From contig CAVWUU010000001.1 in the NCBI GenBank assembly GCA_963758295.1, forward strand, positions 96,001 through 160,000: a stretch of DNA of 64,000 nt. Direction: 5' to 3'. Below, in pieces: positions 14,012 to 26,314 of this stretch (position 1 is the first letter of the stretch; the number at the start of each line of letters is the position of its first letter). The stretch comes from Candidatus Eremiobacteria bacterium (GTDB lineage: Bacteria > Vulcanimicrobiota > Vulcanimicrobiia > Vulcanimicrobiales > Vulcanimicrobiaceae). A program made the translations under genes and the position numbers. The notes beneath the pieces were generated by a model. That model ran no database searches. It had not been told where the DNA came from and saw nothing but the letters and a program-made list of their open reading frames with translations.

Positions 14012-15169
14012 CTATACCAGGGCTGCGCGGCGTAGCCGCACGGCTCCGATGATGGTGAAAATTACGTTGGGCATCCATGCCATGATCGGCGCGAGCGGCA
14101 GAAAGGCCTGACCGACGTACGAAAAGATCGTCATCACGATGTAGTACACGAACACGATCGCGACCGCCAAACCGAATCCAAGACTCGTGCTGCCTCCTCC
14201 GCGCGACGCGCGAATGCCGAACGGCACCGCGATAAGCGTGAACACGAAACAGGCGAACGGACGCGCTAACTTTTCTTGGTAAGTCGTCACGTACCGGCGC
14301 AACTCCGACTGCGAAAGCTGGCCCGATTTCACGACGTCCGCGATCTCGGCCCGGCTCATCGACTCGGGATCGTTATTGCTCAAGCGCTTCACGATATCGG
14401 TTGGCTTCTCGCCGAGTGCGACCTCCTGCTTCGGCACATGCGGCTCGGTCACGATCGTGCCGTCCGGATTGAACCGGTAGAGGCTGACGTTTTCCAACGC
14501 CCACTTATCGGCCGCAAAGTCGGCGCGATCGGCGAAGATCACCTGCGTGGGCTGATTGTTTCGATCGTATTGCACCAGCGTCACGTGCAGCAGCGCTTGC
14601 GAATGCGGCTCGTACGCCGTGGCGAGCGTGATCTGCCGGCCACCGCCCGGCAACGGCGCCGAGACGGTCAAGTCATGACTGAACGCGCTCGTGTGCGAAA
14701 TCGCGACATTTTCGATCTCGGTAACCTGGTCCGCCGCATAAGGCGCAACGAATTCACCGAGGATGAACGTGACGATCGACATGGCGATGCCCGCCCACAG
14801 CAACGGCGCCATGATGCGCGTGAACGTAATGCCGCCGGCCTTCATCGCGGTGAGTTCGCTCTCGCCCGAAAGACGTTGAATGGCGAGGAGCGTACCGAGT
14901 AACAATGCCATCGGAATGACCAGGACGACTTCGCTGGGCAGGCCCCAGAGAAAGACTTCGATCGCCGCCCAAAGCGGCGCATGCTCCGTTGAGACGAGCC
15001 GGCCGATGGCGAGCAGCTGCGTAGCTGCAAAGATCAACGTGAACGCCGAAAGCCCAAAGCCGAACGGCCCGAGGAGTTCGGCGATCATGTACCGGTCCAA
15101 AATCGTGGGCCGGATGCGCCGTGGCAGATAACGCCACCACGGCTTCGACATGTCTACAGTCGCCGCCAC
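14012..15169 (-). CDS. LPS export permease LptF/LptG family
   Basis: ILDRY, IPMALLLGTL…RLSGESELTAMKAGG, MAWMPN; multi-pass membrane protein. Confidence 0.93.
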   Translation of the reverse strand: MAATVDMSKPWWRYLPRRIRPTILDRYMIAELLGPFGFGLSAFTLIFAATQLLAIGRLVSTEHAPLWAAIEVFLWGLPSEVVLVIPMALLLGTLLAIQRLSGESELTAMKAGGITFTRIMAPLLWAGIAMSIVTFILGEFVAPYAADQVTEIENVAISHTSAFSHDLTVSAPLPGGGRQITLATAYEPHSQALLHVTLVQYDRNNQPTQVIFADRADFAADKWALENVSLYRFNPDGTIVTEPHVPKQEVALGEKPTDIVKRLSNNDPESMSRAEIADVVKSGQLSQSELRRYVTTYQEKLARPFACFVFTLIAVPFGIRASRGGGSTSLGFGLAVAIVFVYYIVMTIFSYVGQAFLPLAPIMAWMPNVIFTIIGAVRLRRAALV

Positions 15170-15931
15170 TAGAGCCGGAAGCCTTCGCCTAAATAGAACT
15201 GCCGTGCGATCGGTGAATCCAGGACTTCTTGCGCGGTACCGGAGACTTCGATGCGCCCGTTATTCATGATGTACGCGCGATCGACGATGGCCAGCGTTTC
15301 GCGCACTTGGTGATCCGTGATGAGCACGCCCAAGCCGCGATCGCGCAGTTGCCGGATCATCGCTTGAATGTCCGCCACGGCAATCGGGTCGATGCCGGTA
15401 AACGGTTCGTCAAGTAACAAAAACGCCGGCTCGGTAGCGATCGCGCGAGCGATCTCGACGCGGCGGCGTTCGCCGCCGGAAAGGCTGTCGCCGTGAGCGT
15501 CGACGAAGCGACGCAAACCGAATTCTTCCAACAACACCGGAAGACGGCGCTCTTGCTCGGCGCGCGGCACGCCGTTCTGCTCCCAGATGAGCCGGATGTT
15601 GTCGCCGACGGAGAGTTTGCGGAAAATCGAATTTTCTTGCGCGAGATAGCCGATGCCGTTGCGCGCGCGTTCGTACATTGGGCGGCCCGACGAGATTGAT
15701 TTCGCGTTCGCCGTTATCGAGAACGACCGTGCCGCCGTCGGGCTTCACGAGCCCAACGACAATGTAAAACGTCGTCGTCTTGCCGGCGCCGTTGGGACCA
15801 AGAAGGCCGACAACCTCGCCGGTATTGACCTCGGCGCTCACTCCGTTCACCACGGCGCGCTCGCCGTAGTTCTTCACGAGTCCTCGAAGTTTGATCGAGT
15901 GTAAATGTTGTGCTGTTGCCGTGGCGTTCAT
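15169..15931 (-). CDS. lptB: LPS export ATPase LptB, split by one extra base near 15691
   Basis: 5' ORF has [12 protein letters not shown]; 3' ORF has PMYERAR…[38 protein letters not shown]. Removing one base in ATCAATCTCGTCGGGC joins the two. Confidence 0.92.
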
Positions 15932-16467
15932 TGCATCTGCGTGTGGGTGAGCGTGATGTCGGAGTCCACGCGGTTTCCCGTCGCATGGAAGCCGTTATTT
16001 TCCGTGATAACGACGTGGCCGTCCCCGTGGAACATCTCCGTCGTACGATCGTAATGAAGAGTATCGCACTGGAGCGTCATTCCCGTGGCATTATGTGCCG
16101 TAACGTTCCCCTGCAGCTCCACGATGTTGGTACTTTGGTCGACGATTGCTCGTTGCGAGTCCGCGATCAGTTTCGAGCCGTCTTTTCCGTAGAACGTTAC
16201 ATGGGGATTCATGAAGGTGGCCTTCGCCGTTCCGGGCGCGCCCTTGCTGCTAAACGAACGCGCGTCGATCTCGTATTGTTTCGCATTCCCTTTTTGACCC
16301 AGAAAGCGAACGGGCTGCTTCGCCGTGCCGCTGCCGGTGATGTTCAACGCAAGCGGCGCCGACGAGCTCGGGCTTTGCGAGGGCTTTGGGGCGGCGGTTT
16401 TAGGGGCTTGCGGATTGCATGCGGAAAGCGCGGCCGCTGCCGCAAGGGCCGTCCAACGTTTATTCAT
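15928..16467 (-). CDS. lptC: LptC-family LPS export protein (lipoprotein-type signal)
   Basis: LSAC lipobox, beta-jellyroll-like strands, directly upstream of lptB. Confidence 0.8.
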
Positions 16468-17678
16468 GCATCCACCGTTCCGGCACGCGCCGTGGCAAGT
16501 GCCAACGCCAGCGTGGGAAACCACAATCCGAAAATTACGACGCTCACAGTATCGATCAGCCCTTGCACGAGCGTTCCCACAAGTCCCGCCGCCACCGCAA
16601 GAGCCAGCAGCGCGGCCTCATCGCTTGCTATCGCAAGACGCCGCCGAAGTTCCACAGCAAAGGCCCAGAACGTCCACACGATCGGCGCAACGCCGACGAT
16701 GCCCAGCTCGGCCAGAAACGTAAGGTAGACGCTGTGCGCGTGAAAGGCCGTTGCGTCTCCGTCCGGCAGCCGCAACAGCGCGTACAATCGCGAAAATCCG
16801 AACGGTCCAACGCCGGTAAGCGGAAACCGGTCGATCGCGGCGACCGCCGTTTGCCAAATGGAAAGACGCGTGTAATTCTCGCTCGGATCGTGGTGGGCGT
16901 TGAAGAGCAGCAATACCGCAAGGAGCGCCGCACCCACGATCGCGGCTCCGAGCCCGATCCCGATGTGCTTTTGACGTGACCGCACGGCGACGAAAAACGC
17001 GATCGCGCTGGCCAATCCGATCCAACCGGTCCGCGAGAACGTCATGATTATCGTAACAACGGCAATGGCGGCCGCTGCGCCCGCCGCTGTGCGAAGCGCT
17101 CGCGTCCGCGCTACGCGCGACAACGCATACGCTATCGGAATGAAGACGATCAAATAACCGGCCAGTTCACCCGGAAGAATGAAAGTGCCGATTGCCCGAC
17201 CGTGACCGATGGTGTATTGAGCGGCGGGATGGCGCGTGACGACCATCACGATCGCGAGCACACATGCCGCGGCGCCCGAGACGATATACGCCCAGAAGAT
17301 CGCGCGCGCAACGCCGCGATCCTCGTAAAAGCGCATCACCGAACAGTACCACGCTAATCCCAAAAATAAAATGCCGACGAAGATGGCTCCGTCACGTGGA
17401 TTGAATCCGGCGAGCACCGCCAGCACGCCGCCGCCGAGCCAAAAAAGCAACGGCTTCCCGAGCGCAATTGGGACACGCGGCAGCGCCAACATCGTGGCTC
17501 CCGCAATCAGCGCGAGCAGCACCATTAGGCCGAGAATCGCGAGCGCAACCGGAACCGGGAGCAGCGATACACCGGGAAAGTCCACGCTCGTAAACGTGAT
17601 AAAGATTGGAAACAGCGGAAGGCACGCATAAACGACGGCGAACATCGCCGGCATATTGCGCCGGACGAGCGCGGTCAT
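16464..17678 (-). CDS. O-antigen ligase (WaaL/Wzy_C) family membrane protein
   Basis: RAIGTF, TFSRTGW, R…IW, GVGPFGF, HAHSVYL…ELG motifs. Confidence 0.9.
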   Translation of the reverse strand: MTALVRRNMPAMFAVVYACLPLFPIFITFTSVDFPGVSLLPVPVALAILGLMVLLALIAGATMLALPRVPIALGKPLLFWLGGGVLAVLAGFNPRDGAIFVGILFLGLAWYCSVMRFYEDRGVARAIFWAYIVSGAAACVLAIVMVVTRHPAAQYTIGHGRAIGTFILPGELAGYLIVFIPIAYALSRVARTRALRTAAGAAAAIAVVTIIMTFSRTGWIGLASAIAFFVAVRSRQKHIGIGLGAAIVGAALLAVLLLFNAHHDPSENYTRLSIWQTAVAAIDRFPLTGVGPFGFSRLYALLRLPDGDATAFHAHSVYLTFLAELGIVGVAPIVWTFWAFAVELRRRLAIASDEAALLALAVAAGLVGTLVQGLIDTVSVVIFGLWFPTLALALATARAGTVDA

Positions 17679-18832
17679 CGCTTCACGCTTCGCACGATAG
17701 CGCCCGCGATCGCGCGCGCACCGCCCGGCGGCCCCATCAGCGCGCGTCCGGCAGCTGCCATGCGTTCGCGCCGCGCGGCGTCGGCCAACACGGTTTGCAC
17801 GCCCGTCGCTGCGGAGTCTAAATCGCCCGGAAACACCGCCAACGCGTCACCCAGTAATTCCGATTGCCGCATGCGGTACCACGCCGTTTTCCGGTCGCTG
17901 CCGCGCTCGAACGCTATCACGGGAATGCCGCCCGAAGCCGCCGCCTCGTTCGCGGTTCCCGCTTGTCCAACAACCAGTTGCACCCGCGTCAGTAACGGAC
18001 CTAGTTCACCGCGCCACGCGCGAATCAACGTTCGATCGCCGTCGCGCAATTCAAATTCGAGCGGGCCGTCGTGCAGGGGAACGACCGTCCACGTTTGCTG
18101 GAATGCCTCTCGGAAGCGCGCGAGATCTAACATCGGCGCGAGCGAAAGGACGCCGCCCAAGCTTTGATTCGATCCGGCGGCGCGGCGCAGGACGTCTGCG
18201 AGAAACACGGCATCATTGTAGGCGGCTTCGCGGCTGCCGGGAAACAGCGCAAGCGCCGGATCGAAGCCCGCGACTGCGCGGTCTGCGCTCAAATCATCGG
18301 CAACCGCAAAGAGATCGACGATAACGTTTCCCGGCGCGTCCGCCGCGACGCCTTGGGATCGCAAGCGTTCCGCCGTTGCGCTGTCGCGCACGAAAATCTG
18401 ATCGGCACGGCGCAGTACTCGCCGCTCCATCGTGCCGTACGGCGCTACCCGCACGCTCTTTGCCGTGCCGACGTACGTAGCCGGAACGCGCACCGCGAGC
18501 GCCATCAGCAATGCGTAGACGTCGCCGACTGCCACGACGCGCGCGTACCGGCCGCGCGCCCTTACCAAAAAGCGCCGTTGCGCGAGCGTCAATCCGAGCA
18601 ATCCGCCGCCGATGTCACGCACGATGTTCCGAACGTTCCCCATTGCTATGAGGCCGCCGCTCGGCATGGCTTCCTGCGGCCCGACGTCGTGCATGAAGCG
18701 GGCTTTGCTGCGCCCGACGAGCGCCAGATGGTCGATTTCAAGCTCGGGCGCAAGTTCCCGAACTTCCTGGGCGATGCGATCGGCAATGGCGATCTCGCCG
18801 TTGCCGTTGGACACGAAGAGCACCCGCTTCAC
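17675..18832 (-). CDS. Lipid-A-disaccharide-synthase-related GT-B protein (LpxB paralog)
   Basis: VSNGNGE, MPSGG, VAVGD, LFPGSR, AGTANE motifs as in the cyanobacterial LpxB-related family. Start set at GTG 18832. Confidence 0.8.
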   Translation of the reverse strand: MKRVLFVSNGNGEIAIADRIAQEVRELAPELEIDHLALVGRSKARFMHDVGPQEAMPSGGLIAMGNVRNIVRDIGGGLLGLTLAQRRFLVRARGRYARVVAVGDVYALLMALAVRVPATYVGTAKSVRVAPYGTMERRVLRRADQIFVRDSATAERLRSQGVAADAPGNVIVDLFAVADDLSADRAVAGFDPALALFPGSREAAYNDAVFLADVLRRAAGSNQSLGGVLSLAPMLDLARFREAFQQTWTVVPLHDGPLEFELRDGDRTLIRAWRGELGPLLTRVQLVVGQAGTANEAAASGGIPVIAFERGSDRKTAWYRMRQSELLGDALAVFPGDLDSAATGVQTVLADAARRERMAAAGRALMGPPGGARAIAGAIVRSVKR

Positions 18833-18833
18833 G

Positions 18834-19559
18834 TCAGGGCGCGCCGAGTAACGGGACGAGCTCGAACTCATCGATACGCAGACGTTTCTTCGAGTCGTCG
18901 TACGTTAGCTGCGTGCGCGACACATACTGTCCGTACGGGCCCGCATGAACGATCGGCACACCGCCGACGTATTCCGGTGCAAAAAGCGTGTCGTGACTGT
19001 GGCCGCCCAAAATCAGATCGATCCTCGGAACGGCGGCGGCAAGTTTGCGGTCGAGATTCAGCCCAACGTGCGAGAGAACGATCAGCGCATCGCCCTCAGG
19101 CAGGCGTTCTGCGTAAGTTCCAACCGCGTCCCACGGATCGAGAAAGCGCCATCCGAAAACGCGCTCGTACGGGCTGCCGTTGGGATACTGCATGATGAGC
19201 AATCCCAGTAGGTGAACGTTGATTCCGTCCGCATTCAACGTCATCGACCGGACGAACGGGAGCTCGCGGCCCTTCGTGTCCAGCAAGTTCGTGCAAACCA
19301 GCGGATGCGTCATCTTCTTGGCCCGCGCTCGCAACAACGGGAAAAGATAATGGAATTCGCGATTGCCGATCGCTTGCGCGTCGTACCCGGCGGCGTCAAT
19401 CTCGCCGATGATCGGCTCGTTGCGATGGTACACGGTCTGGCTTCCACGCAGAGAATCGCCACAGTCGAAAAGCAAACCGGGACGTTCCTCGCGCAACGCT
19501 TTCAAGCGCGGTGCGATGCCGCGATGATCGTGTAAGTCGGATGTGTGATAGATCCGCAC
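18834..19559 (-). CDS. Calcineurin-like metallophosphoesterase (5'-nucleotidase N-domain-like, stand-alone, no signal peptide)
   Basis: HTSDLH, DCGD, GNRE, SHVG, GGHSH motifs. Confidence 0.9.
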   Translation of the reverse strand: MRIYHTSDLHDHRGIAPRLKALREERPGLLFDCGDSLRGSQTVYHRNEPIIGEIDAAGYDAQAIGNREFHYLFPLLRARAKKMTHPLVCTNLLDTKGRELPFVRSMTLNADGINVHLLGLLIMQYPNGSPYERVFGWRFLDPWDAVGTYAERLPEGDALIVLSHVGLNLDRKLAAAVPRIDLILGGHSHDTLFAPEYVGGVPIVHAGPYGQYVSRTQLTYDDSKKRLRIDEFELVPLLGAP

Positions 19560-20678
19560 TTAGGCGGAGCCTGCTTTTGCCAGCGCGACCGCAAAGCGCG
19601 CGCAAAGATCCAACGCGTCCGGCGGTCCAAGCTTTTCGCGCAGTTCTAAGAACGCTTCATATTGCGGGACCGGATTCTCCAGCAGCTGCTCCATCGCGCC
19701 CGCTAAGTTTTCAGCGGTAGCGGCGTCTTGCAAAAACTCCGGCACGACCTCGCGTTTGAGCACAAGATTCGGCAAGGTGATGTATTTGCCCGAGTATACG
19801 CGGCGTGCGTGGCGCACAAGTACCGGCGCAATCACGTAGAGCGCTACGGCCGGAACGCCGAGCAACGCCGTCTCCAACACCGCCGTGCCGGATGCGACCC
19901 AGGCTGCGTCGGCATCGGCGATGGCCGCGTGCACTCCGCGCATGACCGTAACGTCTCGAAGTTTCTCGCGTGCAATAGTGCGCTTGAGCTGGGCTTCCGC
20001 GGCATCGTTCGCGGCTCCGAATATTCCGCGGAGATCCGGACGCCGAACCTTGAGCGCGCGATACGCTTCGACCAGCGCCGGTACGTGGTAACGCAATTCA
20101 CCGTTGCGGCTTCCCGGAAGCATCGCGACCGTGCCGCCGTTCGGCGAAGGCGCCGGGCGTGGCGGGCGTGACGCGTACTGCGCCGCAAGCGGATGGCCGA
20201 AATAAACGATCGGCAATCGATGCGATTTATAGAACTCGTACTGATGCGCGAAGGCGGTCAACGGAACGGCGTACGAGCTTACTTCGCGCGCTTTAGCTTC
20301 ATTGTCGAGCCATGTGGCCGGCGGAAATACGTCCAGTACGGCGCCGCCGTACTTCTGACGCGTGCGCAACTCTTTCGCGAGCCGCAAGTTGAACGCGCCG
20401 AAATCGACCAGTATCACGAGATCGGGCTTAACGCGCGCAACGTGCTGGGCGGTTTGCCACATCGTAGCGAGCAGCTTTGGAATGCGCGGAATAGCGGCGA
20501 GCGGTCCCATGCTGGCCCAGCCCGTGTGATCGCGCCAGAGTTCGAAGCCTTCGGAACGCATGCGTTGCGAGCCGATCCCCTCGAACTGCGCTTGCGGGTC
20601 GTACCGGCGAATGGCTTGCGCCAGTAAGACCGCGCTTAGCTCGCCCGAAGCCTCGCCGCTCGAAAAGAAGTAACGCAA
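19560..20678 (-). CDS. lpxB: Lipid-A-disaccharide synthase
   Basis: SGEASGE, LVDFGAFNLRLA, GHPL, LPGSRNGE, ASGTAVLE, LPNL motifs; follows lpxA. Confidence 0.93.
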   Translation of the reverse strand: MRYFFSSGEASGELSAVLLAQAIRRYDPQAQFEGIGSQRMRSEGFELWRDHTGWASMGPLAAIPRIPKLLATMWQTAQHVARVKPDLVILVDFGAFNLRLAKELRTRQKYGGAVLDVFPPATWLDNEAKAREVSSYAVPLTAFAHQYEFYKSHRLPIVYFGHPLAAQYASRPPRPAPSPNGGTVAMLPGSRNGELRYHVPALVEAYRALKVRRPDLRGIFGAANDAAEAQLKRTIAREKLRDVTVMRGVHAAIADADAAWVASGTAVLETALLGVPAVALYVIAPVLVRHARRVYSGKYITLPNLVLKREVVPEFLQDAATAENLAGAMEQLLENPVPQYEAFLELREKLGPPDALDLCARFAVALAKAGSA

Positions 20679-20679
20679 C

Positions 20680-21447
20680 TTATTTGAGGATGCCTCGCTG
20701 CGATTCGTTCTCGAGAAACGCGATGATTTCGCGGCCGGGGTCGCTGCTGGCCTCGGCCTTCATCTCGGAGATCGCTTGCGAGACGTTGAGCTTCGGGTTA
20801 TAGAGGATCTTGTAGAATTTTTTGATTTCGTTGCGTTCTGCAACGGTGAACCCTGCGCGGCGCAAACCAACGCTGTTCAACCCGTACGGCTGTGCCGGGT
20901 TGCCTTCGATGAGGAAGAACGGCGGCACGTCTTTAGTAAGTTTGCTCGCGCCGCCGATCATGGCATAGCGGCCGATGCGCGTGAACTGATGAACGCCGGC
21001 CTGTCCGCCGATCGTCGTGTAGTCCCCTACTTCCACGTGGCCGGCAAGCTGCGCGAGGTTGCTCATCGTCACGCCGTTGCCCAAAATGCAGTTGTGCGCG
21101 ATATGCACGTACGCCAGAAGCAGGCAGTCGTCGCCGACCGCGGTGACTTCGTCTTCGCCGGTGGCGCGCTGAATGCTGACGTACTCGCGAAGAATCGTGC
21201 GGCTGCCGACGCGCGTGAAGGCACGTTCGCCCCGATACTTGCGGTCTTGCGAAGCCGCACCAATCGTGGCGAACGGATAGATCACGCAATTCTCGCCGAT
21301 GTCCGTCCAGCCGTTGATGACCACGTGCGCCTGCAGCACGGTTCCCGTGCCGACCGAAACATGTTCGCCAACGATGCAATACGGCCCGACTTCTACGCCG
21401 CGCGCAACTTTTGCATTCGGATGAACGATAGCGGTTGGATGTATCAT
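20680..21447 (-). CDS. lpxA: UDP-N-acetylglucosamine acyltransferase
   Basis: MIHPTAIV, hexapeptide repeats, HIAHNC, VHQF, GLNSVGLRR. Confidence 0.97.
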   Translation of the reverse strand: MIHPTAIVHPNAKVARGVEVGPYCIVGEHVSVGTGTVLQAHVVINGWTDIGENCVIYPFATIGAASQDRKYRGERAFTRVGSRTILREYVSIQRATGEDEVTAVGDDCLLLAYVHIAHNCILGNGVTMSNLAQLAGHVEVGDYTTIGGQAGVHQFTRIGRYAMIGGASKLTKDVPPFFLIEGNPAQPYGLNSVGLRRAGFTVAERNEIKKFYKILYNPKLNVSQAISEMKAEASSDPGREIIAFLENESQRGILK

Positions 21448-21449
21448 TT

Positions 21450-21923
21450 TTAGGCGTGCAGCACCGCGGCGTCGGCGCCGAACATGCGCGGATCGGACGC
21501 GATCGAGAACATTAGCTCGCACGCGCACGCGAGTTGGTCGTCGACCTTCGCTTCCGCGCGCACCCAGCCGATGTTGCGTTTATGGCGTTCGAGCGTCACT
21601 TCCATCATGAGGCGGTCGCCGGGAACGACCGGACGGCGAAACTTTGCCTTATCGATGCCGGCGAGATACGGAGTCTTCCGCGAGAACTCGCCGGGCTCGA
21701 GAACGACCGCGCCGCCGAGCTGCGCCATCGCTTCGATCATGTACACGCCCGGGAAAAGCGGATTGCCGGGAAAGTGTCCGGTGAAAACCGGCTCGTTGAA
21801 CGTGATGTTCTTATAGCCCAGCGCGCGCACGCCCGGCTCGAGCTCCAGAATCCGGTCGATCAAAAGAAGCGGATAGCGATGCGGCAAGATCTCCATGATC
21901 TGCCGGATGTCCATTTGTCCCAC
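21450..21923 (-). CDS. fabZ: 3-hydroxyacyl-ACP dehydratase
   Basis: LPHRYPLLLID, GHFPGNP…PGV…EAMAQ. GTG start after GAGG. Confidence 0.97.
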   Translation of the reverse strand: MGQMDIRQIMEILPHRYPLLLIDRILELEPGVRALGYKNITFNEPVFTGHFPGNPLFPGVYMIEAMAQLGGAVVLEPGEFSRKTPYLAGIDKAKFRRPVVPGDRLMMEVTLERHKRNIGWVRAEAKVDDQLACACELMFSIASDPRMFGADAAVLHA

Positions 21924-21930
21924 GATACCT

Positions 21931-22758
21931 CTACGCTGAAGATGCGACACCCAATTGTTGCCGCAGGGCACGCGTCACGCGCGCGTGCAAGGCGTGCCCG
22001 CTCTTGATGGCGATCACTTCGCAAAGCGGCCATGCGCCGAGCAGGGCAAAATCTCCGATCAGGTCGAGCACTTTGTGCCGGACAACTTCGTTGCCCCACA
22101 GCAGCGGCTGCATTGGACCGGTTTCGTCGTATACGAGCGCGTTGTCTAAACTGCCGCCGCGCGCCAGCCCTTGCTCGCGCATCGCTTCGACGTCGCGCAA
22201 AAATGTAAACGTGCGCGCGGACGCGATTTCTTCGCGGTAAGTCTGCGGCGTAATTTCACCATCGAAATAATGCGTGCCGATTGGTTCGTCGTAATGCGCG
22301 ATGAACCGGATGCGGAACGTCTCGGACGGCAGCACGATAGCGGCTTTATCGCCGTTGCGATATTCGAACGGCTCGGTAATCCGCAGCATGGGGCGTTGCG
22401 TTGCGCCCGCGGTTAAGCCGGTAGCGGCAATCGCGTCGGCATAAATCTTGGCGGATCCGTCAAGGATTGGAATTTCGCGCCCGTACAATACGATCTCCGC
22501 ATCGGAGACCCCCATGCCCATGAGTGCCGAGAGAATGTGTTCGATCGTCGAGATGCTGCGACCGTGCGACTGGATGATTGTAGCGAGCGGCGTTTCCACC
22601 GCGTATTCGGCAAGCGCCGGGATGCGCGCGCCGTCGCTCAAGACGAAGACGTAACCGGTTCCCGGGGACGCCGGGCGCACTTCCATCGAGGCAGCTTCAC
22701 CCGTGTGAAGACCGACGCCCTCAAATCGCAGGGCATCGCGCAGCGTTGCAGCGTTCAT
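21931..22758 (-). CDS. lpxC: UDP-3-O-acyl-GlcNAc deacetylase
   Basis: GVGLHTG, STIEH, PILDGSA, ARTF, HKVLDLIGD, GHALH. Confidence 0.97.
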   Translation of the reverse strand: MNAATLRDALRFEGVGLHTGEAASMEVRPASPGTGYVFVLSDGARIPALAEYAVETPLATIIQSHGRSISTIEHILSALMGMGVSDAEIVLYGREIPILDGSAKIYADAIAATGLTAGATQRPMLRITEPFEYRNGDKAAIVLPSETFRIRFIAHYDEPIGTHYFDGEITPQTYREEIASARTFTFLRDVEAMREQGLARGGSLDNALVYDETGPMQPLLWGNEVVRHKVLDLIGDFALLGAWPLCEVIAIKSGHALHARVTRALRQQLGVASSA

Positions 22759-22770
22759 TGCTCGGCGGGC

Positions 22771-23799
22771 TTACTCGGTCTTACGCGACCGTTCGCGCTC
22801 CAACGCATCCACACGAGCGATCAGCTTTGGCAGCTTGCGAAGCATGACCTCCGTTCGAAGCGTCTCGCGATGGTCACGCGCGGGATTGCCCGAAATCATC
22901 GAACCATCCGCTACGTCGCCCCACACGCCCGACTGTCCCGCGACGGTCGAACCGGAGCCGATGTGCATGTGTCCGCGCGTGCCGACTTGACCCGCAATCT
23001 TCACGCCGTCGCCGACGCTGGTCGAGCCGGCGAAGCCGCTTTGCGCCGCAACGGCGGAGTGCTTACCGATGCGCGAGTTGTGGCCGATCTGTACGAGGTT
23101 GTCGATCTTCGTTCCCCGCCCGACGACCGTGCTGCCCGTTTGCGCGCGGTCGACGCAAGCATTTGCGCCGATCTCGACTTCGTCGTCGAGCACGACGTTG
23201 CCGATCTGCGGAATACGTTCTAGCCGGCCCTCTAAAAAGGCCCAGCCGAACCCTTCGCTGCCGATCACGCAGCCCGAGTGCAGAATGACGCGATTTCCCA
23301 GGACGCACCCTTCGTGCACGATTGCCCGCGGGTGCAGCCAGCACTCTTCACCGATCGCCGTGCCGGCACCAACGTAGGCGCCCGGCGAAAGCACGGTTCC
23401 ACGTCCGATGGTTACGCCGCTCGCCACGTACACGCCGGCGCCGAGATAAACCTCGTCGCCGATCTGCGCGCCGTCTTCGACGACGGCCGTCGCATGCCGG
23501 AACGGACCTTTCGGGCGCGGCGCCTTCAGCGCCGCAAGCAGCGTCGCAAGCGCGGCACGAGCGTTTTCAACCACAAGCAGCGGCTTCGGCGCGTTTTCGA
23601 GGCCGGGCAGGGATGCATCGACCAGCACGGCTGCAGCAGCACCGGCAAGAGCCTCTGCGAGATACTTCTCGTCGGTAGCAAACGTCAACGCATCCGAAGT
23701 CGCGTCACCGATCGCACTGATGCGCGCGATCGCTACGGATCCCTCTCCTACGATGCGCCCGCCGACGCGTGCGCCTAGCTCTTGCAGCGTGCCTAACAT
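22771..23799 (-). CDS. lpxD: UDP-3-O-acylglucosamine N-acyltransferase
   Basis: Hexapeptide repeats, IGSEGFG, IPQIGNV, KIDNLVQIGHN. Confidence 0.97.
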   Translation of the reverse strand: MLGTLQELGARVGGRIVGEGSVAIARISAIGDATSDALTFATDEKYLAEALAGAAAAVLVDASLPGLENAPKPLLVVENARAALATLLAALKAPRPKGPFRHATAVVEDGAQIGDEVYLGAGVYVASGVTIGRGTVLSPGAYVGAGTAIGEECWLHPRAIVHEGCVLGNRVILHSGCVIGSEGFGWAFLEGRLERIPQIGNVVLDDEVEIGANACVDRAQTGSTVVGRGTKIDNLVQIGHNSRIGKHSAVAAQSGFAGSTSVGDGVKIAGQVGTRGHMHIGSGSTVAGQSGVWGDVADGSMISGNPARDHRETLRTEVMLRKLPKLIARVDALERERSRKTE

Positions 23800-23806
23800 G
23801 TGCAGC

Positions 23807-24208
23807 TTACGTGGGCGACGGAGACGCCTTCTCGGTAATGTTCATGAGCTTTTCGACGTCGGGCGTAATGTCCACGCCGCCGTAGCCCACGCCTTCCTTC
23901 GTAACCACGAGCTTGAGATTCTTGTCCGACGCGACCTTATTGGCGGCATCGCGAATCTGCTTGGTGAGATCGTCGGTGATCCCGGCGTACTTCTTCTGCA
24001 GCGCGTTGGCTTCCTGAGTCTTGCGCTGCGTGCTCGCCTTACTTTGCACGATCTTCTGCTCTTCGGTAAGCAGTTGCTGCTGGTAGTTTTGATACGTCGG
24101 CCAGTTCGCAACCACGCGGTTGATGTCGATCAGACCAACGGGGCTGGAGTTGCCGCTGCATCCTGCGAGCAGCGCGGCGAAGGCAGCGATGGCGGTGTAT
24201 TTCTTCAT
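23807..24208 (-). CDS. Short OmpH/Skp-like lipoprotein
   Basis: LAGC lipobox, VGLIDINRV and VGYGGVDITPDV Skp-type termini. Confidence 0.8.
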   Translation of the reverse strand: MKKYTAIAAFAALLAGCSGNSSPVGLIDINRVVANWPTYQNYQQQLLTEEQKIVQSKASTQRKTQEANALQKKYAGITDDLTKQIRDAANKVASDKNLKLVVTKEGVGYGGVDITPDVEKLMNITEKASPSPT

Positions 24209-25485
24209 TCGTGTAAACTCTCGACGTCGTGAATTAGATCGTTAGTAAGGTCGTAACCGCCGTTGGCGGCAGCTACGTTATCGAAGACCACGGAAAAGCC
24301 CATGTCTTTGGCGATCCGTTGCGCTTCGCGATGGATTTGGTCGGTCATTTGCGCCTGCAGATCGTCGTGACGCTTCTGCAGCGACGCAAGTTCTTTTGCG
24401 GCAGAGCCGGTCGCGCCGACGTCCTGCCCTTGGAGAGACGCGTACTGACGGTCTAGATCCGTCTTGGTCGCGTTGTACTCTGCAATGCTCTTCTGCGCGT
24501 CCGATTGGAACATGGAGGCGTACTGCGAGTGAATCTGAGCGAGCTTCTTCTGCACGTCCGGCGGCACGTTGGGTGCGGCCGGTCCGGCGAGCGTCTTCAA
24601 TTGCGATCCAACCGCGTCGCGGCGGGCGCTCAGCTTTGCTTGGGTTTGCGAACGGATTTTCGCCACTTCGGCCTTCACCGAAGAATCGGTCTGCGCGCGA
24701 AGCTGCGTGCGATACGTGGCCAGATCTTGCTGGTCGCGGGTACGCAGCGCATTGACTTGATCGGCCTCTTTTTTGTCTAGGGCCGCCAGCTGACCGTTCA
24801 CCGACGCGCGCGTTGCAGCATCGAGCGCAAGATTGTTCAGCTTTAGTTTCAGTGCAGAGCGCTGCGTTGCGTCCTCTTGCGCGAGGCGCAACGACAGGTC
24901 GGTTTCCTGTTGCTGATACTGTTCGGCTTTTGCACGAAACTTCGCGTCGCCTTGCTTCTGTAATTGCTGCGCGACGCCGTTCACGGCGGCCGTATCTTGC
25001 GATATGACGCTTTGCTGGTACGCCATGTAATCTTTGTTGGCTTGCTGTGCGGCGCTGGCGGCCTGCTGCCGCGAGGTGGCGCTCATTTGCGCGGCAGCCT
25101 TGAAGCTCGAGGGGTCGATGCCGGCGGCTTGCAACGCGGTCACATCTGCCTCCCGCTCACGCTTGCCGTACTCGACTTGCTTCTGCGCGATCGCTTTGTT
25201 TGCACGGTCTTGCGCATCGCGCAACTGCTGGTTTAACTGCTTGACGCCCGCGGCGACTTCGGCCGCGCTGCGGGGCACGCGCGGACCGGCCGCTTCCAGG
25301 TTGATCGCGGTAATCGAATCGTCCAGTTGCGAGAGTTGCTTGTAGAGCGGGTGGTGCTTGAGCACCTCGTCCATCCGCACGTAGGCCATCCCGCGAATCT
25401 GCGGCGAGTTCACGTCGACATGACTGCAACCGCAGAAAGCAGTTGCAGTCACGAATGCAAGAAGCGCCGCGGCTTTACCAGGCAT
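24205..25485 (-). CDS. Long coiled-coil OmpH/Skp-like protein, probable lipoprotein
   Basis: AYVRMDEVLKHHP and VVFD…GGYDLTND Skp-type termini around a long Gln/Ala-rich coiled coil; FCGC after a hydrophobic stretch. Start set at ATG 25485. Confidence 0.7.
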   Translation of the reverse strand: MPGKAAALLAFVTATAFCGCSHVDVNSPQIRGMAYVRMDEVLKHHPLYKQLSQLDDSITAINLEAAGPRVPRSAAEVAAGVKQLNQQLRDAQDRANKAIAQKQVEYGKREREADVTALQAAGIDPSSFKAAAQMSATSRQQAASAAQQANKDYMAYQQSVISQDTAAVNGVAQQLQKQGDAKFRAKAEQYQQQETDLSLRLAQEDATQRSALKLKLNNLALDAATRASVNGQLAALDKKEADQVNALRTRDQQDLATYRTQLRAQTDSSVKAEVAKIRSQTQAKLSARRDAVGSQLKTLAGPAAPNVPPDVQKKLAQIHSQYASMFQSDAQKSIAEYNATKTDLDRQYASLQGQDVGATGSAAKELASLQKRHDDLQAQMTDQIHREAQRIAKDMGFSVVFDNVAAANGGYDLTNDLIHDVESLHE

Positions 25486-25510
25486 TGCTTTAGCTTTGTC
25501 CCGGCAAAAT

Positions 25511-26314
25511 CTATTTCGAGAGGGCATCTTGGACATCTTTCGTGATGTCCATGCCTCCGTAGATGATGTCCGCCCGGTCGACGACGAGCAACAAGTTGTG
25601 CTTCTTCGCAGCGTCGGCCGTATCGGACTTCGTCTGATCCACAAGCGGCTTCAGCAGTGAATCGCGCTTGTCTTGAATCGATTTGTTGTAGTCCGCGAGG
25701 ACCGCTTGTTTGTCGACGTCGGTCTTAGCCGCTTGCAGCTTCGGCGCGTACGTCTTCTGCTGATCCTGCTGGAACTTTTGGAGCTGGTCGGCAGCGTCTT
25801 TGACCTTCGACGAACCATCGAGCGCCGTTTGATCGACCCAGCCGATTTCCGACGGCGCGGGCGACGCGCTCGGCGGCGTCAACGCCTGCGAACTCTGCAG
25901 CGCGCTCGTAACGTCTTTGGTTATGTCCTCTCCGCCGTAGACGATGATGCGTTTGTCGACGACCACCGAAAGGTTCTTGCTGCCTGCGACCGACGCGATC
26001 GCGAGCTGGGCACGCTGGAAGAGCGGGCCGACGACTTCGCGTTGCTTGTCGGCGAACTGCTGCTGGAAGCGCAGCGACACGTTCTGTTTGTCCGCGTCGC
26101 TTTTTGCACCGCGCATGGCGGCGGCGAACTGGGAATCCAGCTGCTGCTTGTATTGCGCGAGCTGGGCGTTGGCACGCGCGAATTGCGGCAGGCTGCCGAC
26201 GGCGCTCTGATCGATGAAGCCCACGTCGGTGAGGTCGGCAGCGATTGCCGCCGGTGCGACGACCGTTGCAAGCGCAGCCGTTGCAAGCAGGGTATTGATG
26301 AGGCGTTTTCTCAT
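25511..26314 (-). CDS. Tandem two-domain OmpH/Skp chaperone
   Basis: Two repeats: VGFIDQ…VVVDKRIIVYGGEDITKDV and IGWVDQ…LVVDRADIIYGGMDITKDV; signal peptide. Confidence 0.88.
   Translation of the reverse strand: MRKRLINTLLATAALATVVAPAAIAADLTDVGFIDQSAVGSLPQFARANAQLAQYKQQLDSQFAAAMRGAKSDADKQNVSLRFQQQFADKQREVVGPLFQRAQLAIASVAGSKNLSVVVDKRIIVYGGEDITKDVTSALQSSQALTPPSASPAPSEIGWVDQTALDGSSKVKDAADQLQKFQQDQQKTYAPKLQAAKTDVDKQAVLADYNKSIQDKRDSLLKPLVDQTKSDTADAAKKHNLLLVVDRADIIYGGMDITKDVQDALSK

Follow-up and report, generated by a model that had tools for sequence, protein, structure and literature searches.

A candidate UDP-2,3-diacylglucosamine pyrophosphatase of 5'-nucleotidase type in the lipid A operon of Vulcanimicrobiota

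Introduction

The fourth step of lipid A biosynthesis, an essential reaction, is the only one that is filled by unrelated enzymes, namely LpxH and LpxI, the two common ones, and LpxG, and we know of several diderm lineages that have none of the three. In UshA, whose NCBIfam name refers to UDP-sugar cleavage, the His of the third motif is the general acid, and arginines of the C-terminal domain bind the substrate phosphates. In LpxH, Arg80 binds the phosphate of lipid X, and the parts of PMC3087551 and PMC5016852 available to us report a His-to-Arg change in the third motif for LpxH only. According to the accessible part of PMC5016852, the P. aeruginosa structure carries a helical lid that binds the acyl chains, inserted ahead of the last motif and about 55 residues long (119-173). 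LpxG of Chlamydia (CT461) sets a precedent as a calcineurin-like protein recruited to step four in a lineage without LpxH and LpxI; it has an N-terminal transmembrane helix and the motifs DXH-GDXXDR-GNHD (PMC4807358, available part). Here we analyse a calcineurin-like protein encoded directly beside lpxB as a candidate for the same step.

Results

The candidate is an inner gene of a lipid A operon

In the window, that is, the whole 64,000-nucleotide stretch of DNA analysed, the candidate gene spans 18834..19559 (-) and encodes a stand-alone 5'-nucleotidase-type metallophosphoesterase of 241 aa with a GNRE motif; the coordinates that follow in this section are all on the same strand. Upstream lie lpxB, the gene of lipid A disaccharide synthase (19560..20678; PF02684, E 1.4e-57), lpxA (20680..21528, an ORF counted from its first possible start; TIGR01852), fabZ (21450..21971; TIGR01750), lpxC (21931..22758; TIGR00325) and lpxD (22771..23799; TIGR01853), the last four scoring above the NCBIfam cut-offs. 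Pfam and NCBIfam agree on all five identities, in line with the earlier note on this DNA, which had read lpxD, lpxC, lpxA and lpxB in the cluster. The next gene downstream, which that note had overlooked, is LpxB-like and matches TIGR03492 below the cut-off (ORF listed as 17675..18871, likely 17675-18832; E 1.2e-56, 192 bits against 219). It is followed by the gene of an O-antigen ligase-like membrane protein (Wzy_C, IctB-like; 16464..17678; PF04932, E 6.2e-22; TIGR00947 below cut-off) and by the LPS export genes lptC, lptB (in two overlapping frames) and lptF/G (14012..16524), of which lptC and lptF/G were assigned by Pfam/NCBIfam and lptB from ABC-ATPase motifs. The gene order is tamB-like, bamA-like, three ompH, lpxD, lpxC, fabZ, lpxA, lpxB, candidate, TIGR03492, Wzy_C, lptC, lptB, lptF/G, DUF3084 and RuvX-like, with the names tamB, bamA and lptB read from the sequence by eye, without a profile scan.

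The start codon of the candidate is GTG and follows the TAA stop of lpxB without a gap, which upholds the direct abutment described at first. The TIGR03492 gene likely has its true start at a GTG at 18832, one base past the candidate's stop. Together, the two junctions make the candidate an inner gene of the operon. Its close relatives that bear names belong to Vulcanimicrobiota/Eremiobacterota, and the Vulcanimicrobiota host group consists of soil bacteria.

The split lptB (15169-15931) comprises overlapping frames at 15410-15931 and 15169-15678, probably because of an indel in the sequencing; in most relatives lptB yields one match. At 23807-26314, the tandem of three OmpH/Skp-like genes is kept across the class, and one of the three encodes 479 aa with a long coiled-coil-like middle.

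Search for known step-four enzymes

The genome that carries the window is 82% complete, so absences were checked in relatives, using 151 phylum genomes (this genome and a sample of 150 at >=90% completeness; the tallies include the unpublished genome G110). In the genome of the window, the LpxH model TIGR01854 found no match at E<=10 and the LpxI model PF06230 only a 9.7-bit fragment. Across the 151 genomes, TIGR01854 had no match at E<=1e-3, PF06230 none over its cut-off and PF17930 none at all, with the controls matched in each search. Two PF06230 matches at E 0.002-0.01 were rejected as 40-residue fragments below the cut-off. The lack of a recognisable lpxH or lpxI, first noticed in the cluster, thus holds for the whole set.

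LpxG, the third source of lipid X named in the earlier note, was looked for by inspecting PF00149 hits in four genomes rather than with an LpxG model. No protein with a membrane anchor and GDXXDR/GNHD was seen among the seven hits of the genome of the window and the 14 of three single-contig relatives; as the same search missed the candidate gene itself in two of these three relatives, LpxG-like proteins could escape it too. One metallophosphoesterase match in the genome of the window (G000:C6:48461-48928) contains an internal TGA, likely a frameshift or break.

Searches for Cdh, LpxK and WaaA, in five genomes each, were all negative. The absence of LpxK and WaaA from all five indicates a non-standard later lipid A pathway, and with Cdh missing as well the phylum resembles the cyanobacterial four-enzyme set, as given in the accessible part of PMC3087551. 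Cyanobacteria show the same step-four gap there and, since none of the named relatives encountered here was cyanobacterial, other solutions to the step evidently exist. Another conserved hydrolase, for example a 241-aa GDIVG/GNHD metallophosphoesterase or a Nudix enzyme, might make lipid X, with the candidate in another envelope role: such PF00149 proteins occur in all four genomes inspected, and cyanobacteria manage with a step-four enzyme still to be named (PMC3087551, same part). However, none of these PF00149 proteins lies in the lpx cluster or bears the Arg of the candidate, and we regard this explanation as very improbable.

Linkage to lpxB and to a TIGR03492 gene

LpxB was matched in 148 of the 151 genomes and the candidate query in 150, a count that may take in full-length nucleotidases; in the only genome with no query match, lpxB is cut at a contig end. 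When 14 of the weaker-scoring genomes were rechecked by alignment, 11 held the short form beside TIGR03492, in two it lay downstream of lpxB at the end of a contig and one was unresolved. One rechecked copy (G055) has an in-frame TAG. The candidate adjoins lpxB in 29/29 same-class loci and in 79/79 testable further loci, taken from the best 80 of 294 matches of a genome-collection scan (one was untestable; other phyla lie outside the reach of these 80). In 37 loci from other classes, lpxB is present at <=5.5 kb in 29, absent from two and untestable in six (29/31 testable). Both the co-occurrence and the conserved linkage with lpxB, on which the earlier note had made its proposal depend, are therefore borne out.

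The TIGR03492 gene, whose product probably adopts a GT-B fold given its relationship to LpxB, adjoins the candidate in all 29 same-class loci and in all 79 testable further loci. Of the 37 other-class loci, 34 have it adjacent and one has it within 2 kb; it is absent from one and untestable in one (34/36 testable), and two of the loci where it is adjacent have no lpxB nearby. In genus g48, the candidate and TIGR03492 sit on the strand opposite lpxB in 9/9 genomes. A 650-aa protein, P0390, fuses a GNRE domain to a TIGR03492 protein that scores above the cut-off. The adjacency counts, the inversion and the fusion place the candidate in the LPS cluster with TIGR03492 as its closest tie, tighter than that to lpxB, which makes another lipid A-related role conceivable. 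In that case the candidate would act together with TIGR03492 late in the synthesis of a Kdo-less lipid A, for instance by removing phosphate or pyrophosphate from the disaccharide or by clearing a nucleotide by-product, letting TIGR03492 add a sugar, and a different enzyme would perform step four. The lack of LpxK and WaaA, hence a non-standard later pathway, suits this reading. On the other side, the fusion is one record and may be an assembly artefact, and TIGR03492 also matches the Synechococcus and Deinococcus controls, the latter with no match in the LpxB searches.

In the g48 genomes, among them L159 (G002:C1:57951-62964), lpxB lies within an open frame of 816-851 aa, a probable fusion; their metallophosphoesterase carries about 35 inserted residues.

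In the other classes, the clusters additionally hold a second LpxB-like gene, a GnnA-like gene resembling UDP-GlcNAc 3-dehydrogenase and an LmtA-like methyltransferase matched by TIGR04571 below its cut-off (E 1.7e-15). At L014:1429-6185, and similarly in L012-L047, the 3-dehydrogenase-like gene sits between fabZ and lpxA, and lpxB is followed by the further LpxB-like gene and the methyltransferase, occasionally as a single long frame. GnnA opens the route to diamino-sugar lipid A, and the 1-phosphate is methylated by LmtA. The gene content of these classes suggests a diamino-sugar lipid A with a methylated phosphate, the type known from Leptospira. A retained 1-phosphate, as the LmtA-like methyltransferases suggest, counts against a role of the candidate in later phosphate removal.

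No relative of the candidate was found on viral contigs. Plasmid matches (130 records) were set aside as uninformative; the 25 listed have 27-34% identity, and the named ones are mostly 5'-nucleotidase or SoxB. Most of 30 proteins checked for a name carry none. One labelled 'Armatimonadetes' and one labelled 'Chloroflexi' fall among Vulcanimicrobiota in the tree, so single labels are unreliable.

Fold and motifs

The Pfam scan of the candidate returns Metallophos/Metallophos_2 only, with no 5_nucleotid_C (PF02872) and no PF17930 or PF06230 domain. Its DxH motif begins at residue 8, which leaves no room for a signal peptide, and hydropathy shows no signal or transmembrane segment in 68 family sequences, the Kyte-Doolittle 19-residue mean exceeding 1.6 in just two (maximum 1.62). 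ORF, Pfam scan and hydropathy thus agree with the initial description of a 241-aa calcineurin-like enzyme that has neither signal peptide nor C-domain. The NCBIfam matches of the query and 39 relatives are of SoxB, UshA and CpdB type, to the N-domains only and far below the cut-offs; TIGR01854 matches neither the query nor any other of the 40 alignment members at E<=0.01.

The entire AlphaFold model of the candidate (pLDDT 97.4) is matched in Foldseek by 5'-nucleotidase catalytic domains (E 4.6e-19). By VIA, it aligns with 9a7h_A over 234 residues (Z 27.6, rmsd 2.6 Å) and with E. coli UshA, 1oid_B, over 232 (Z 26.1, rmsd 2.7 Å). The entries listed by Foldseek and VIA are filled by 5'-nucleotidases, and LpxH is not among the matches listed. 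The 5'-nucleotidase-derived domain proposed in the earlier note is consistent with this, the fold being that of the 5'-nucleotidase/UshA catalytic domain.

The motifs of the candidate are D8-x-H10, GD35 (in the second motif, GDSLR), GN66-R67-E68, H164 and GGH187-S-H189. In 70 aligned loci, which represent 67 genomes with three counted twice, the seven metal-site residues D8, H10, D35, N66, H164, H187 and H189 are invariant, and so are R67, E68, Y71, R79 and F139; the third motif had therefore been read correctly as GNRE. The last two His motifs are spanned by 27 residues in 63/68 sequences, and the model has one helix there. Hydrophobic moments of the helices range from 0.24 to 0.51 across all segments and single out no membrane helix. 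Residues 70-83 are basic and aromatic, with a mean net charge of +2.8, and residues 126-137, in the loop 124-139, stand out by their aromatic content; both are candidate lipid-facing surfaces.

Compared with LpxH, the candidate shares a calcineurin-like dimetal site, a length of about 240 aa, the lack of a transmembrane helix, an Arg in place of His in the third motif and, as proposed below, the reaction. It differs in the absence of a TIGR01854 match, in GNRE versus GNRD and in lacking the helical lid; with its fold nearest to 5'-nucleotidases, the shared Arg is likely convergent. Unlike LpxG, it has no N-terminal helix and carries GDSLR and GNRE. LpxI, as described in the available part of PMC4807358, is unrelated in sequence and mechanism. 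With UshA, 5'-nucleotidase, NadN, SoxB and YunD it has the catalytic-domain fold in common over the whole chain, but it lacks their signal peptide and C-domain, replaces the catalytic His by Arg, scores far below the family cut-offs and sits in a lipid A operon. Judged by its sequence, the candidate falls outside what defines LpxH, LpxG, LpxI or a complete 5'-nucleotidase; its mode of action would resemble that of LpxH, to which it does not belong.

The His-to-Arg change tracks C-domain loss

We scored the third motif in the best 150 cluster representatives, comprising 66 short and 84 long proteins. All 66 short representatives have Arg, while 80 of the 84 long ones have His (three of them with an additional unrelated Arg string), two have Arg and two could not be parsed; the two long Arg carriers are the fusion P0390 and a 360-aa protein. 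Among these representatives, the His-to-Arg change thus tracks the loss of the C-domain. Two origins of the Arg fit: the enzyme may have converged on the chemistry of LpxH, or the residue may compensate for the missing C-domain. Either way it would suggest that a phosphoanhydride is cleaved and not an ester, since a general-acid His is dispensable when phosphate is the leaving group; this argues against ester cleavage at a later lipid A step.

If the Arg only substitutes for the lost C-domain arginines, the candidate could be retained in the envelope operon to recycle UDP/UMP, either as a cytoplasmic pyrophosphatase acting generally on nucleotides or UDP-sugars or as half of a split 5'-nucleotidase. 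Every family and fold match is to 5'-nucleotidase, UshA or SoxB, as this would predict, and the correlation with C-domain loss is what compensation would leave behind. Yet PF02872, fused or separate, was found in none of five genomes of the candidate's own family, and a split 5'-nucleotidase was rejected for that family on this ground; it may hold for one side branch, described next. A recycling role also predicts less than the near-universal retention in LPS loci in two gene contexts and would leave the step-four gap unfilled, which makes it improbable.

A sister subfamily in a second LPS context

Starting from distant members, we reached a second group whose named proteins belong to Armatimonadota or Chthonomonadales. 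Among 120 of its proteins, the third motif is NRE in 111, NRD in five and HRE in one, with three unparsed. We examined 44 of 80 metagenome loci, mostly top-ranked, and set aside five (two of Vulcanimicrobiota type and three with His), leaving 39; the taxa of these contigs were inferred from similarity alone. In the 39 loci, kdsC lies directly upstream in 10, kdsD upstream in seven and a GT-C membrane glycosyltransferase downstream in 13. The kdsD-kdsC neighbourhood appears to be a second LPS context for Arg-bearing enzymes. Some other sister loci have unrelated neighbours, as a general pyrophosphatase would allow.

No lpxB was found near sister members in 14 testable loci, and no TIGR03492 in 28. 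The sister subfamily thus retains the Arg with no TIGR03492 nearby, which speaks against a function bound to TIGR03492 on a later step of Kdo-less lipid A; on all the evidence we consider such a function unlikely, less so than a recycling role.

In 4/39 sister loci, from a GNRES side branch, a separate 5'-nucleotidase C-domain gene is directly upstream, which favours a split 5'-nucleotidase there. The stand-alone C-domain proteins (L195:7217-7891, likewise L192, L196 and L229) have an apparent signal peptide, judged by eye, and the adjacent GNRES members have none. They would therefore occupy a different compartment from the GNRES enzyme, which weighs against two halves acting together. The separate gene could be left over from gene fission, or it could encode a genuine partner.

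For Fimbriimonas (Armatimonadota), Table S25 of PMC4072686 gives lpxA, B, C, D, K, kdtA and htrB and leaves lpxH/lpxI unlisted, and from the available part of that supplement no gene could be matched to the candidate family. In both Armatimonadota genomes in the accessible part of the PMC5007114 supplement, LpxA and LpxB have consecutive accession numbers, an indirect sign that no LpxI lies between them. If those Armatimonadota genomes carry the gene, what it does in Kdo-containing and Kdo-less pathways alike would belong to the early steps, among which step four is vacant.

Discussion

We think it somewhat more probable than otherwise, from motifs, fold and gene neighbourhood, that the candidate is a UDP-2,3-diacylglucosamine pyrophosphatase and not an orthologue of LpxH, LpxI or LpxG. 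Counting against this reading are the missing LpxH-type lid, the tighter tie to TIGR03492, the lack of lpxB near sister members and the separate C-domain genes of the side branch. As a cytoplasmic enzyme, the candidate would cleave UDP-2,3-diacylglucosamine to supply LpxB with lipid X, releasing UMP, and might play the same role in Armatimonadota. The substrate would be bound on the cytoplasmic side of the inner membrane, where two Mn-type ions would activate a hydroxide for attack on the alpha-phosphate and Arg67, like Arg80 of LpxH, would hold the beta-phosphate that leaves as part of lipid X. The invariant R79 on the basic, aromatic helix 70-83, together with the aromatic loop 124-139, may provide membrane docking and hold the acyl chains, replacing the lid of LpxH.

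A broader account, to which we give slightly less than an even chance, is that of a fourth, independently evolved family of UDP-2,3-diacylglucosamine pyrophosphatases in Vulcanimicrobiota and Armatimonadota. It would descend from an exported 5'-nucleotidase that lost its signal peptide and C-domain, converged on the His-to-Arg change of LpxH and binds lipid without a lid, and its companion TIGR03492 might attach the first core sugar to a lipid A that lacks Kdo, in the absence of WaaA.

In the literature searched, which covers subscription journals thinly and includes the available parts of PMC13018214, PMC4807358 and PMC5007114, we found no proposal of this family as a lipid X-forming enzyme, and no paper there names the TIGR03492 model. 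The present analysis adds counts across the phylum, the association of the Arg with C-domain loss, the kdsD-kdsC context, the fusion and the counter-evidence.

The candidate family leaves the cyanobacterial step-four gap unexplained. If the proposal is true, step four would gain a fourth enzyme family, filling the vacancy throughout one phylum and perhaps a second, and the same His-to-Arg change would have arisen twice in one fold for one reaction. It would also bear on how the LPS pathway was assembled in early diderm bacteria.
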